The notes beneath the pieces were generated by a model. It saw only the letters and a list, made by a program, of their open reading frames with translations, was not told the DNA's origin and did not search any database. A stretch of 45,385 nucleotides of DNA from a virus. Location: positions 1 through 45,385 of the IMG/VR virus record IMGVR_UViG_3300028886_000153. One strand, 5' to 3'. Each line of letters opens with the position of its first letter. The stretch's first letter is position 1. Shown piece by piece: positions 1,815-28,883 of this stretch. The translations under genes were made by a program, and so were the position numbers.

Positions 1815-4229
1815 ATGTCAGATACCTTACAAAAAGATCTCGTCCTATCCACAAACGAATATGCCTACGTCCTAGATCAAACCAAAGGTTTCATTTCCTG
1901 TCTGGTTGGTCCGACAAAAATGTCCCTATCTCAGAGCGATAGTCTGGTTACTTTTAACACTAAAACCAAAAGATTTGAGCCCTGTTCTTATGCACAAGCT
2001 ATTAAAATTCTTACTATTTGTCCAGAAAACTGGTACTGTATTTTGAAGAATCCTGCAAAAGACAACAAACATCCTAATCCTGGAACTTCAAATACACTTC
2101 CAGAAGGAATGGCAGTGGGGAAGAAAATCAATATTACCGGTCCCGTGAGCTTTGCTCTCTACCCCGGTCAGATGGCAAAAGTGGTTCGTGGTCACGCTCT
2201 TCGTACCAACCAGTATCTCCTTGCGCGCGTCTATGAGGCTGCGGCCGCAAGCTCCTCTTCCGGAGAAGTGCGTGATGCCGAGGGTAATGTAATTGACACC
2301 AAGGCCACCTATGTCAATGGTCAGATTCTGGTCATCAAGGGTACCGAGGTTTCCTTCTACATCCCGCCTACCGGCATCGAAGTCATCCCCATCAACAATG
2401 ACGACTCTAATGGTTATATCCGTGAGGCTGTGACCCTTGAGCGTCTTGAATACTGCATCCTCAAGGACGAAGATGGTAACAAGCGTTATGTACACGGCCC
2501 GCAGGTTGTGTTCCCTGAGCCTACCGAGACTTTCGTGACCAGCCCCAAGGGCGGATACGTGTTCCGCGCTGTTGAGCTCTCCCCCATCAGTGGTATCTAT
2601 GTTAAGGTCATCGCTGAATATACGGAGGGTGATAAGACTCATCCCGTTGGCGAAGAGCTGTTTATCACTGGTAATGACCAGATGATTTATTACCCCCGTC
2701 CGGAGCATGCTATCATCACTTATGATGGTAAGATGATGCATCACGCTATCGCAATTCCCGAGGGCGAGGGTCGCTACATTATGAATCGCCTTACTGGCGA
2801 AATTAAGACCGTTAAAGGTCCGCAGATGTATCTTCCCGATCCTCGTTATGAGGTGGTTGTGAAGCGTAAACTGTCTCGCCACCAGTGCGAACTGATGTAT
2901 CCTGGTAATGCCGAAGCTCTCGCGTACAACGAGCAGCTTACCGAAAAGACTCTGGAAAAGTCTCTCAAGACTATCTCTATGGACGAGTTCACCGCATACA
3001 GCACTTCCAATAGTATTGGCGATACTCTCGCAAATCTTGAGGCCAAGGCAAACATCTCTCGCGGCACTTCCTATACCAAGCCTCGTACCATCACGCTGGA
3101 TACTAAGTATGAAGGCGTTGTAACTACTGATGTATGGACTGGTTATGCTGTCAATGTTATCAGTAAAGATGGTACTCGTGAGGTTATTTGCGGCCCGCAG
3201 ACCGTCATGCTGGATTACGACCAGACTCTGGAAGAGCTCCAGCTCAGCACTGGCAAGCCCAAGACTACCGACCATCTCATTCATACCTGTTTCCTTCGTT
3301 ATGAGAATAACAAGGTTAGCGACCTTATCAATGTTGAAACTAAGGACTTCGTGCGTTGCACTGTCAAGGTTTCCTACTGCGTTGATTTTGACAAGCAGTA
3401 CTCTGATAAGTGGTTCAGCATAGACAACTACATTAAGTTTATGACTGACCGTGAGCGTTCTCTGATGAAGCGTGCGGCCAAGAATTACACCATCGAAGAG
3501 TTCTACCAGAACTACGTCGATATCATTCGCAATGTCGCTGTCGCAAAGGACGAAGGTGGCGAGCATCCTGGTCGCTTCTTCCCGGAGAACGGTATGTATG
3601 TCTCTGACTGCGAAGTTCTCTCCATTGATGTTGAGCGCGACATTGCCGAGATGCTTATCAATCATCAGCGTGATATCGTTGAGCGTTCTCTTGAACTCTC
3701 TACTGCCGATAAGCGTGTTCAGGTTGCTGAGCAGCTCGCTATCGCAGAGAAGAAGGAGAACGAAGTTGAGAGCCAGAAGCTCATTGACAAGATGAATCTC
3801 CAGCGCGAGGAGGCTGTGCGCAAGCTGGCTATCCAAAGCGAGGTAAATCGTCTGAAGGAAGCTGAATCTGAAGCCGCTAAGAAAGCAGAGCAGGACCTCC
3901 AGGTTATGATTGACGCTATTGCCGAAGCCGAGCGTGCGCGCAAGGCTAAGGACCTCGAGCAGGAACTGGCTTACAAGAATGCGCTAGCTGACATTGAGAA
4001 GGCAAAGAAGAAGGCATATGCCGATACCGTCGAGCAGATCATGAAGTCTATCGCTCCTGGTCTTATCGAGAGTATGAGCTCTAATGCAAATGCGGATCTC
4101 GCTAAAGCGATTGCGGCAAGCGTCAGTCCTTACTCCATTGCCAATGATGAATCTGTAAGTGATACTGTAAATAAGCTGCTTCGCGGCCTTCCTATCGAAA
4201 CCCTACTGGATAAACTAAAAGCAGAATAA
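1815..4229 (+). CDS. major vault protein (MVP) homologue, 804 aa, no TAG codons
   Basis: N-terminus NEYAYVLDQTKGFISCLVGPTKMS matches the MVP repeat-domain start ([23 protein letters not shown]); repeated GEELFITG../GPQ.. MVP-repeat-like units; FPENGMYVSDCEVLSIDVERD..LINHQRDIVERSL matches the MVP shoulder region ([31 protein letters not shown]); C-terminal coiled coil like the MVP cap-helix; RBS formed by the end of the upstream gene (AAAGGAGAATAA). Confidence 0.8.
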   Translation: MSDTLQKDLVLSTNEYAYVLDQTKGFISCLVGPTKMSLSQSDSLVTFNTKTKRFEPCSYAQAIKILTICPENWYCILKNPAKDNKHPNPGTSNTLPEGMAVGKKINITGPVSFALYPGQMAKVVRGHALRTNQYLLARVYEAAAASSSSGEVRDAEGNVIDTKATYVNGQILVIKGTEVSFYIPPTGIEVIPINNDDSNGYIREAVTLERLEYCILKDEDGNKRYVHGPQVVFPEPTETFVTSPKGGYVFRAVELSPISGIYVKVIAEYTEGDKTHPVGEELFITGNDQMIYYPRPEHAIITYDGKMMHHAIAIPEGEGRYIMNRLTGEIKTVKGPQMYLPDPRYEVVVKRKLSRHQCELMYPGNAEALAYNEQLTEKTLEKSLKTISMDEFTAYSTSNSIGDTLANLEAKANISRGTSYTKPRTITLDTKYEGVVTTDVWTGYAVNVISKDGTREVICGPQTVMLDYDQTLEELQLSTGKPKTTDHLIHTCFLRYENNKVSDLINVETKDFVRCTVKVSYCVDFDKQYSDKWFSIDNYIKFMTDRERSLMKRAAKNYTIEEFYQNYVDIIRNVAVAKDEGGEHPGRFFPENGMYVSDCEVLSIDVERDIAEMLINHQRDIVERSLELSTADKRVQVAEQLAIAEKKENEVESQKLIDKMNLQREEAVRKLAIQSEVNRLKEAESEAAKKAEQDLQVMIDAIAEAERARKAKDLEQELAYKNALADIEKAKKKAYADTVEQIMKSIAPGLIESMSSNANADLAKAIAASVSPYSIANDESVSDTVNKLLRGLPIETLLDKLKAE
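2240..2249. repeat. TGCGGCCGCA palindrome copy 1 (in MVP gene)
   Basis: exact 10-mer. Confidence 0.9.
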
Positions 4230-4240
4230 AATAAAAAATA

Positions 4241-4270
4241 CCGAGTGGCATTTATACCACTCGGTATTTT
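4241..4270. terminator. bidirectional rho-independent terminator (CCGAGTGG-loop-CCACTCGG + T-run); loop contains the TAA of the minus-strand gene 4252-4980
   Basis: perfect 8-bp stem, U-run on both strands. Confidence 0.6.
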
Positions 4271-4980
4271 GTTGTTTCCAATAATAAATCATCAATACAT
4301 AGATCTTGTAAATGAGTATATGGAATGCGAATTAAAGGAATATTATTTTCTTCGCACCATTTTGTTTTATACTAATCATGCTCTAATCTTTTCTCAAAGC
4401 GTTCTTGCTTATCCCAAGACGTATTAAATTTTTGAAAATGCTAAATACCATCATACTCTATTAAAAAAGAATTATTTATAAAAAAATCAAATCGAGCTAA
4501 AGCAAAAGAATCTGGAAAACGACAATCTTCAAAAGTTTTTTGAGTAATAAAATTAATATTATTAGCTAACAAAATTTTATTAATTTTTTCCTCACCAAAA
4601 GAAATTCTACATCCGCAACTAGTAGTGTGGCCAAAACGTAAATCTATTCCTTTTACAGTAATTATATTTCCACAATCACATTTGCATTTCCATAAAGCCT
4701 AACCCTATTTATTAGAACCAATATTTTCTAAGGCGATAAGTTTTCCAAAACGCTGATTGGTAATATCAATAAAATTAGTATTTCTTGCGGCCGCACGCTA
4801 TAAGCAGCCACAAGATTTCGTATGCCCTGACCGTAAATGCTAGCCACTAACAATTATAGTTTCAGGATTTCCACAATTACATTTACATTCCCAATGAATA
4901 CGAGAATAGTTTCCTTCGGCTTTTTTTATCACAGTTAATTTTCCAAAATTCTATCCAGTTAAATCAATAAAACTAGGCAT
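4252..4980 (-). CDS. paralogue of the CxCxCGN-repeat/Vsr-like family (242 aa; 7 in-frame TAG), inverted relative to copy 1097-1810
   Basis: minus-strand ATG 4978-4980 with GAAGGGATGTGAATGAAAA RBS region; MPSFIDLTGQNFGKLTV..HWECKCNCGN..SCGC..TNQRFGKL..LWKCKCDCGN..EYDGIQHF..LIRIPY; one repeat uses CAG where others use TAG. Confidence 0.7.
4786..4795. repeat. TGCGGCCGCA palindrome copy 2
   Basis: exact 10-mer. Confidence 0.9.
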
Positions 4981-5033
4981 TTTTCATTCACATCCCTTCA
5001 TTATATTATAAAAATTGATTTTTTTGTCTTAAT

Positions 5034-27851: not shown

Positions 27852-28061
27852 CAATAAACCGGCGTATGAAAGACTTTTCGCCTAATCCGGCGGGTAAAAT
27901 TTTCGGACAAAACATATTTATGTGACCCATACGGTTCTCATATAAATATGAAAGAGAAAAAATTTTGCTAACGGGGAACCCTAAACCGTAAGGCATGGGA
28001 ATCCCGTGGGAAACAAATATTTATCCATTCTCTTTCAAATATATAATGAAGGAGAATAAAA

Positions 28062-28775
28062 ATGATAGGAATTTATAAAATCACTGAAATTGATAATCCT
28101 AACAATTTTTATGTTGGGTATAGTAATAATATAAAAAGAAGATTTAAAGAACATCAATAGAAAACTTATGAACAATCTCGTATTCCTTTTGATGATGAAA
28201 TAAAGAAAAAAGGTATTGAATCTTTTACTTATGAAATTTTAGAAGAATGTTCTGTTGAGGAATTACCAGCACGCGAAAGATATTGGACTGATAAATTAGA
28301 AGCAACAAAAGCCGGTAATGTTTTTGATGGAGGAATAAGTAATTTAGTTGGTGAAAATAATCCAAATAAAAAGATTACAGAAGATGATGTAAAAATCATT
28401 CGTCAATCCTATGCTAAACATAAAAAACAAAAAGATGTATATGAGTAGTTCAAAGATAAAATTACTTTTAGTTACTTTCAAAATCTTTGGCAAGGACGGT
28501 CTTGGAGTCATATTATGCCAGAAGTTTTTACCGAAGAAAATAAAAATTATTATATTTATCAAAATAGTAATGGAAGTAATGGTGCTTCCGCAAAATTTAC
28601 TGATGATGAAGTAATAAATATTAGAAAAAGATATGTCAATGAAAGTGCTAAAAAAATATATGAAGATTATAAAGATAGAATATCTTTTCAATCTTTTCAA
28701 CAAATTCTTTGGGGTAGATATTACTCTGAACTTCCTATCTATAAGAAAAAAGAGAAAAAATGGATAAATATTTGA
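28062..28775 (+). CDS. intron-encoded GIY-YIG homing endonuclease (237 aa, 2 TAG)
   Basis: IGIYKITEIDNPNNFYVGYSNNIKRRFKEHQ; GAAGGAGAA RBS; in intron loop. Confidence 0.7.
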
Positions 28776-28867
28776 ACCTGTATCGACTATCCTCTTTGCC
28801 TTCTGGGCGGAGGAGTAGAGGTGCTATTGATACGCACTTCGAAATGGTCTCCTTGCGGTCATAATTT

Positions 28868-28883
28868 ACCTGCGGCCGCAGGT
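28868..28883. repeat. TGCGGCCGCA palindrome copy 6, part of longer palindrome ACCTGCGGCCGCAGGT in intron core
   Basis: exact 16-bp palindrome. Confidence 0.9.

Follow-up and report, generated by a model that had tools for sequence, protein, structure and literature searches.

Chi, the uptake sequences, the FtsK-orienting polar sequences (KOPS) and the highly iterated palindrome HIP1 are over-represented words, each of which revealed a DNA-handling machine. The uptake signal sequence (USS) of Pasteurellaceae and the DNA uptake sequence (DUS) of Neisseriaceae belong to competent bacteria with sequence-specific uptake, and AGCGG and GAAGCGG are Chi words of Firmicutes. In cyanobacteria, HIP1 (GCGATCGC) is found along with alternate highly iterated palindromes (HIPs; GCSGC, GGCGCC, and GCCGGC), and methylation-linked mismatch repair has been proposed as their function (Elhai 2015, PMC4390886). 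Phages may be enriched in Chi, as are LLS and MD8, with Chi strand ratios of 20:3 and 32:0, respectively (PMC12315714). Here, we consider an over-represented word in a viral DNA of 45,385 nucleotides (IMG/VR record IMGVR_UViG_3300028886_000153, in full; referred to as the window), in which a reading of the sequence alone (the sequence-only reading) had pointed out six copies of the palindrome TGCGGCCGCA, which contains a NotI site.

That reading treated the 10-mer palindrome as the unit of the signal. Instead, the signal is built from the asymmetric word (Y)TGCGGC, most copies of which lie outside any palindrome. We conclude with high confidence that the NotI palindrome arises where two inverted copies of an over-represented word overlap, and that this word is strand-blind, lineage-specific, and kept at the DNA level by continual creation. 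With the same confidence, we assign the enrichment to a large uncultured phage family in which it has lineage-specific variants.

The palindrome and its half-word

All six copies of TGCGGCCGCA were confirmed (at 2240, 4786, 5595, 14337, 26411, and 28871). Four further sites, at about 15659, 30670, 9760, and 7040, had been listed as one-mismatch copies but carry two mismatches each, sharing TGCGGCCG; copies that differ by a single base lie at 20963 and 42711. The copies and near-copies are as follows.

2240-2249: in a major vault protein (MVP) shoulder-domain gene, plus strand; xxT GCG GCC GCA, Ala-Ala-Ala in YEAAAASS
4786-4795: in the minus-strand, TAG-recoded zinc-ribbon/PD-(D/E)XK nuclease gene 4246-4983; Ala-Ala-Ala in CGCLQRAAARN
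5595-5604: in gene 5113-6279, plus strand; Ala-Ala-Ala preceding a predicted membrane helix (WKRAAAVLLLL)
14337-14346: in the 3' end region of gene 14010-14375; TGC GGC CGC, Cys-Gly-Arg in the zinc finger CPNCGRKM
26411-26420: in gyrB exon 1; CTG CGG CCG CAA, Leu-Arg-Pro-Gln
28871-28880: non-coding, in the gyrB intron, within the 22-nt perfect palindrome TTTACCTGCGGCCGCAGGTAAA at 28865-28886
20960-20975: one-mismatch relative ACCTGCGGGCGCAGGT, arms ACCTGCG/CGCAGGT around GG; in the Walker A motif GPAGAGK of PhoH
42711-42720: one-mismatch copy TGCGtCCGCA

At the GC content of the window (37.5%), base composition predicts 0.0064 copies of TGCGGCCGCA, and the reported excess of about 1000-fold holds against this null; stricter nulls yield smaller excesses that are still significant. 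None of 100 dinucleotide-preserving shuffles of the window produced the 10-mer. When codons were shuffled synonymously, keeping the proteins and the codon usage of each gene, 0.08 coding copies were expected against the five observed, a number reached in none of 2000 shuffles; a shuffled-codon control thus does not reproduce a similar frequency. A dinucleotide-preserving dicodon shuffle, which is conservative in short genes, gave 1.59 copies against 6 (fixed non-coding copy included; 0 of 1500 shuffles), and a codon shuffle holding the observed avoidance of 4-bp palindromes gave 1.11. A peptide motif or codon usage as the source is rejected by these three codon-preserving nulls. Together with the use of all three frames and both gene orientations, which we could bear out gene by gene, they uphold the original view of a signal at the level of DNA.

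All six copies of the NotI core GCGGCCGC in the window fall within TGCGGCCGCA, and the flanking T...A is kept at 12 of 12 ends. Further out, the description of the flanks as unconserved is broadly right, except that a pyrimidine, C above all, is favoured immediately 5' of the T. The flanks of the copies are unrelated, and a mobile repeat or miniature inverted-repeat transposable element was rejected on that ground. More trivially, the sites could stem from NotI linkers or adaptors at junctions, or from scanning mutagenesis with Mu transposons, whose 15-bp TGCGGCCGCA scar is identical to the 10-mer. We regard this as practically ruled out, since no copy is accompanied by a 5-bp target duplication, no length change or alignment gap appears at the sites relative to homologues, and the sites keep the frame of continuous genes. 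Independent assemblies from other samples carry the same sites (L091 and L092; relatives are cited by locus number where they need to be told apart), and related sites occur in IMG/VR contigs; they are therefore not artefacts of assembly or cloning.

The half-word TGCGGC (complement GCCGCA) occurs 53 times in the window, 31 times on the plus and 22 times on the minus strand, at 47 distinct places with a mean gap of ~0.95 kb. It has the highest z-score among all hexamers of the window, with expectations of 6.6 from composition, 13 from an order-2 Markov model, 19.4 +/- 3.4 from the codon shuffle, and 30.5 from the dicodon shuffle. The three phases in both gene orientations make six classes, all of which are occupied. 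TGCGGCCGCA consists of two TGCGGC words placed head-to-head with an overlap of 2 bp, and 12 of the 53 copies belong to the six palindromes. The bases that follow the other 41 are unlike CGCA; these copies are therefore not decayed palindromes. In 213 kb of DNA from the window and its relatives, the +4 offset that generates TGCGGCCGCA was the sole enriched arrangement of half-words (9 against 0.04 expected), and the palindrome lies more than 40-fold above the expectation for independent half-sites. Extended dyads recur as well: ACCTGCGGCCGCAGGT is found in the gyrB intron and also, in three relatives (L001, L100, and L103), in the RNase H gene, and CCTGCGGCCGCAGG in gyrB of L003. The 16-mer ACCTGCGGCCGCAGGT occurs only 18 times in the viral-contig collection, a number near chance by a rough estimate that does not draw on the total size of the collection; this, too, speaks against a mobile repeat.

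The word is specific at its 5' T. In the window AGCGGC, CGCGGC, and GGCGGC have observed-to-expected ratios (O/E) of ~1, and in the pooled relatives TGCGGC reaches 6.0 against 1.4-2.0 for these three, with CTGCGGC at 11.4. TGCCGC is enriched no more than AGCCGC, CGCCGC, and GGCCGC in the relatives; TGCGGC alone is therefore specific, and TGCSGC was rejected as the word. A bipartite form, TGCGGC-N4-GC, was dropped because the G at +10 fits the codon periodicity of the dominant Ala-Ala phase. The density of the word does not follow the composition of its surroundings. AT-rich, TAG-rich selfish nuclease genes carry 1.19 copies per kb (9 in 7.5 kb, with 0.5 expected from composition), exactly as do all other genes (40 in 33.7 kb), and genes of 30% and 45% GC are equal in this respect. 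Regular spacing was rejected, the intervals being Poisson-like.

The window also avoids certain words. Palindromes of 4 bp that contain A/T are depleted about 2-fold relative to the codon shuffle (GATC, 0.50; CTAG, 0.49; TCGA, 0.54; ACGT, 0.54; GTAC, 0.55; CATG, 0.63; TGCA, 0.75), and the GC-only GGCC, CCGG, GCGC, and CGCG show no depletion. The most enriched tetramer is TGCG/CGCA, and TGCAGC and TGCTGC are depleted. A codon shuffle with nine avoided words fixed at their observed counts still yielded 19.3 +/- 3.3 copies of TGCGGC against 53, by which a by-product of restriction-palindrome avoidance was rejected; nor does TGCGGC, being enriched, behave as a restriction target under avoidance. 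Other words are also frequent in the window, namely, CCAAGAG/CTCTTGG (19 against 4.0 expected, 12:7 by strand, at sites from 7519 to 35997), TGCGCC (24 against 10.7), and TGGCGA. CTCTTG is among the top hexamers of two relatives (L005 and L010).

Relatives, turnover, and gene content

Among GenBank phages, no close relative of the window phage was found. Its replication module is linked to Bacillus phage SPbeta by the Pfam families YonG_N, YorF, and YorH and by the gene order yorF-G-H-I-J-K-L. IMG/VR yielded ten related gyrA loci with 58-89% amino-acid identity and 473 stretches matching NrdD, many of them on contigs of 120-217 kb. We describe the family as 120-200-kb, TAG-recoded, SPbeta-like phages of gut and rumen, of each of which at most ~45 kb was read.

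The counts in relatives that the sequence-only reading had called for show enrichment in several of them. In five related phage loci, L001, L003, L008, and L010 among them, no hexamer outranks TGCGGC, which also has an O/E of 4-12 in L115, L103, and L111-L113; its strand ratios in relatives are 15:10, 14:15, and 8:10. The sister lineage L004 is enriched in TGCGCA instead (13 copies in 20 kb; O/E, ~5), L003 is enriched in both words, and L005-L007 are enriched in neither. In 80 NrdD loci (~1.5 Mb, counted by pattern searches), there are 11 copies of the 10-mer, against ~0.1 by a rough composition estimate made by hand. This density is ~18-fold below that of the window, which therefore represents a lineage at the extreme end. 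Outside the family, the sampled Clostridia and SPbeta lack the signal. Eighty clostridial gyrA loci, which encode the closest bacterial GyrA (33-40% identity), show no enrichment of TGCGGC (median O/E, 1.0) and speak against a host-wide trait as far as these Clostridia go. SPbeta (L196; AF020713, 60001-110000) is enriched in neither TGCGGC (3 against 4.3) nor GCSGC (14 against 12), and a general trait of SPbeta-like phages was rejected. Two gyrA loci, from a Lachnospiraceae metagenome-assembled genome (L080) and Ruminococcus bromii (L081), carry CTGCGGC nine times per 22-kb locus on one strand only. The nine copies in R. bromii compare with 3.1 expected, and 3 of 100 shuffles reach this number; the skew may point to a word oriented in a candidate host group, or it may stem from the coding strand.

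Individual copies of TGCGGC are short-lived. The window and L001, 78% identical in nucleotide sequence, have only 6 of 17 and 6 of 22 sites in common, with 17-23% in common for GC-rich control hexamers; L008 and L010, at 95.6% identity, still differ at 9 of 22 sites. Of these nine differences, eight are transitions, and four are exchanges between TGCGGC and TGCAGC. Losses of the word roughly balance its gains, and therefore its density is maintained, not its position.

The gains are clustered and partly amino-acid-changing, being synonymous where possible, as with GCG-GCC-GCA for Ala-Ala-Ala or the rare codons CTG-CGG-CCG in gyrB, and altering the residue where needed. At copy 5, seven relatives have RLRPG in AT-rich codons (e.g., TTG CGT CCA GGT), and the window and L003 have CTG CGG CCG CAR, which changes the peptide to RLRPQ; L003 alone shares the palindrome. 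L003 also carries ACCTGCGGGCGCAGGT unchanged in the Walker A motif of PhoH. At other GCGGCCGC sites, which are NotI cores not followed by the 3' A of the 10-mer, the peptide is AAA in place of the QEA, EAN, or ENV of homologues, and a variable loop of RNase H reads EPAAAG in L001. Three of 13 Ala-Ala-Ala tripeptides are encoded by GCG GCC GCA, with 0.11 expected, and in the first codon of Ala-Ala pairs GCG and GCC are favoured and GCA is avoided.

Nearly all genes of the window lie on the plus strand. They include genes for GyrB, GyrA, an NAD-dependent ligase, thymidylate synthase, a Sak4-like protein, and DnaB, and further genes for a DnaG-like primase, RNase H, UDG, PhoH, an RNA-repair cluster, an MVP-shoulder protein, and a flotillin-like protein. 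TAG is a sense codon in many of them, as open frames merge once it is read as sense (examples at 26452-26454 in gyrB and in 1091-1807, 8616-9518, 21507-23198, and 37418-38353); judging from the motif IDLTG*KFGRLTV, it probably means Gln. The selfish nuclease genes have the highest density of in-frame TAGs (5-9 per gene), and core replication genes have few or none. Features of the window referred to in this text are the following.

1815-4229, plus strand: MVP shoulder-domain gene
17202-18665: SPFH/flotillin protein
7718-17000: RNA-repair-like cluster (RlaP-type nucleotidyltransferase, three metallophosphatases, NADAR, exonuclease, RNA ligase, AAA_33 kinase)
39469-40395: AAA_24 protein matching the PHROG family of Sak4-like single-strand annealing proteins (E 1.8e-46)
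1091-1807, 4246-4983 (minus strand), 8616-9518, and 37418-38353, with a remnant at 18691-18933: paralogous free-standing nuclease genes
6899-7147, 34538-34867, and 37024-37365: small winged-helix, MarR-like proteins
~27852-28927: gyrB intron with a GIY-YIG open reading frame (ORF) at 28062-28775, interrupting gyrB inside the Toprim DxD motif
~43654-44478: intron-like insertion with a GIY-YIG ORF at 43714-44475, splitting the DnaG-like primase gene

The MVP-shoulder, SPFH/flotillin, and RNA-repair-like genes sit in a block of higher GC content (42-49%). The nuclease paralogues combine two or three zinc-ribbon repeats (WxCxCxCGN...SCGC) with a PD-(D/E)XK-like 'EYDGxQH' domain, their match to DUF2726 being weak, and several TGCGGC copies come from their Cys-Gly codons (TGC GGC). 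The gyrB and primase insertions are related to each other, and Rfam detected neither; the gyrB insertion is present in L006 and missing from most relatives. All copies of the palindrome had been placed in coding DNA or the intron core. The assignment to genes and intron stands, but the copy at 28871 is not in the core, as it belongs to a peripheral hairpin of the gyrB intron, 3' of the GIY-YIG ORF, where TTTACCTGCGGCCGCAGGTAAA is predicted to fold into a 9-bp stem with a GGCC loop. At the same position the L006 gyrB intron and the primase intron hold other short hairpins, that of L006 being unrelated. Copy 6 thus forms a predicted helix where homologous introns also have a helix, as befits a group I intron element.

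A candidate reader and the competing explanations

Tentatively, and with low confidence, our analysis suggests that TGCGGC is the recognition word of a candidate system that reads double-stranded DNA, comparable to the HIP palindromes or the dialects of uptake sequences. Such a protein or enzyme system would read the word regardless of strand, gene, or frame. It would be specific to the phage lineage, considering the TGCGCA of the sister lineage, the three lineages that are not enriched, and the missing signal in Clostridia and SPbeta. The palindrome would be favoured as a dyad-symmetric full site through which both strands display the word, with three tolerant codons as the price, and the word could accumulate via selection for site density or via biased repair. 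More doubtful is an extended version in which (Y)TGCGGC would be a genome-wide 'self word' with dialects, at about 1 per kb, overriding amino-acid conservation and read by a phage-encoded system for the recognition, modification, or repair of double-stranded DNA. Selection or molecular drive would write this word into the genes, which would make it the equivalent in phages of the cyanobacterial HIPs or of bacterial uptake-sequence dialects.

Several observations weigh against a recognition word. Most half-words lie outside the palindrome, unlike the situation for HIP1, and the Poisson-like spacing lends no positive support to selection for even coverage. The enrichment of TGCGCC, TGGCGA, and CCAAGAG implies that part of the signal could be a functionless, context-dependent mutational signature. 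Furthermore, the cognate methyltransferase suggested at the outset was not found in the related phage DNA screened. Regular expressions for C5 and N6/N4 motifs were run on ~250 kb of this DNA, and a back-translated C5 pattern on ~1.5 Mb more, with a C5-methyltransferase motif in 0 of 195 loci. Scans for Vsr and methyltransferase motifs that included neighbouring loci revealed only an unrelated TaqI-like restriction-modification insertion in L008 and L009. The N6-adenine methyltransferase in this insertion is confined to these two loci, and its presence does not track the enrichment. Finally, SPbeta presumably carries a multispecific GGCC/GCNGC methyltransferase and yet lacks enrichment of GCSGC or TGCGGC. 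A consequence of such an enzyme was rejected for this reason, and methylation alone is therefore insufficient for a signal of this kind. The insertion itself is located as follows.

L008 8166-9987 (also in L009), between gyrB and gyrA: TaqI-like N6-adenine methyltransferase (Eco57I/N6_Mtase Pfam, NPPY)

Beside it in L008 is an ORF of 234 amino acids to which no family could be assigned. The two look like a mobile restriction-modification pair, which is missing from the close relative L010.

An explanation without function, which we consider unlikely, would combine a by-product of context-dependent mutation or repair with avoidance of TGCA and TGCAGC-type words and codon context. It would accommodate the 2-fold depletion of TGCA and other A/T palindromes, the rank of TGCG/CGCA as top tetramer, the depletion of TGCAGC and TGCTGC, the enrichment of several unrelated words, and the fact that TGCGGC<->TGCAGC is the commonest change between close relatives. 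Against it, the codon shuffle that holds the avoidance leaves most of the excess unexplained, both for TGCGGC and for the 10-mer (1.1 against 6), gains in conserved proteins are multi-nucleotide and amino-acid-changing, and an equal density in 30%- and 45%-GC genes is unexpected for a process driven by composition. The excess of the palindrome over independent half-sites argues in the same direction. This excess, along with the recurrence of the extended dyad ACCTGCGGCCGCAGGT in unrelated contexts, would suit an operator-like arrangement, in which a dimeric DNA-binding protein of the phage, for instance a winged-helix protein such as the small MarR-like ones encoded in the window, has its full site in the palindrome and its half site in the hexamer and serves in genome organisation, replication, or silencing. 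We judge this unlikely, as isolated half sites form the majority of copies, positions are unconserved and unrelated to gene starts, the palindrome is rare in the wider family (as the NrdD loci show), and the motif is tied to no protein so far.

A recombination signal of the Chi type, one of the roles proposed in the sequence-only reading, appears distinctly unlikely. Here, a host helicase-nuclease of the AddAB/RecBCD type would stop degrading at (Y)TGCGGC, with the palindrome as a compact bidirectional site, and the phage would accumulate the word to protect or recombine its ends. The word is indeed asymmetric, 6-7 nt long, and built around a GCGG core like the Chi words of Firmicutes. Its density is independent of local GC, its dialects could reflect different hosts, and R. 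bromii-like loci carry the one-strand excess of CTGCGGC described above. In being the most over-represented oligomer, at ~1 per kb, it resembles the word of Chi-rich phages (PMC12315714). However, it is unoriented in the window as well as in the relatives. In SPbeta, AGCGG, the Chi word of Bacillus subtilis, is not enriched (29 against 23.7) but is oriented, with 27 copies on the gene strand and 2 on the other; the same word is unoriented in the window (16:22), so there is no general strand effect. In the R. bromii-like loci, the excess of TGCGGC itself falls short of significance (18 against 12.5 and 15 against 12.2). Moreover, the AAA_24/Sak4-like protein probably gives the phage a recombination function of its own, as far as its family match indicates, and Chi enrichment is tied to phages without a recombination module (PMC12315714).

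Comparison with known over-represented words

The striking palindrome may be the visible tip of a shorter and commoner signal. Should a system encoded by the phage read the word, phages would have a form of self-marking or a repair bias of a new kind, and the dialects of the word would serve as a simple sequence marker for lineages, and possibly hosts, of rumen and human gut phages. If it is a mutational signature, it documents a strong context-specific repair bias in phage replication. Word avoidance is well documented in phages, but, to our knowledge, the unoriented enrichment of a GC-rich word that alters conserved residues has not been described.

By its composition, the palindrome invites comparison with the targets of NotI, EagI, and Fnu4HI, since TGCGGCCGCA contains GCGGCCGC, CGGCCG, GGCC, and two GCNGC sites. 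Restriction targets are usually avoided by phages, however, and the window phage enriches TGCGGC while avoiding GATC, TCGA, GTAC, and the like; in addition, no enzyme of the NotI type requires the T...A that is obligatory around the phage palindrome. With the Chi-rich phages the window phage shares an asymmetric, GC-rich word that is the top oligomer and recurs near 1 per 1-2 kb. Chi in LLS and MD8, like AGCGG in SPbeta, is strongly oriented, whereas TGCGGC is not (31:22).

The likeness to HIP is closer. Like HIP, the phage palindrome is GC-rich and grossly over-represented, against composition and codon-aware nulls alike, and it occurs in coding and non-coding DNA, in any frame and on either strand, and has no conserved flanks that would mark a mobile repeat. 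Both HIP and the phage word are spread by substitution and not by transposition, as lineage-specific words at roughly 1 per kb. Unlike HIP, the palindrome is not the unit, only 12 of 53 TGCGGC copies being part of one; it occurs once per 7.5 kb, with an abundant half-word, in a phage and not in a cyanobacterium, and no cognate methyltransferase was found in the phage sequence read. TGCGGC itself behaves much like an uptake sequence. It is short and asymmetric, occurs about once per kb inside genes and on both strands without skew, forms lineage dialects, settles at tolerant protein positions, and occasionally makes inverted pairs, and it would accumulate by drive rather than for a positional function. 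We know of no biased-transmission step in the window phage equivalent to sequence-specific uptake, and inverted pairs of DUS or USS are usually spaced terminators, whereas those of the phage are palindromes that overlap by 2 bp and lie within genes.

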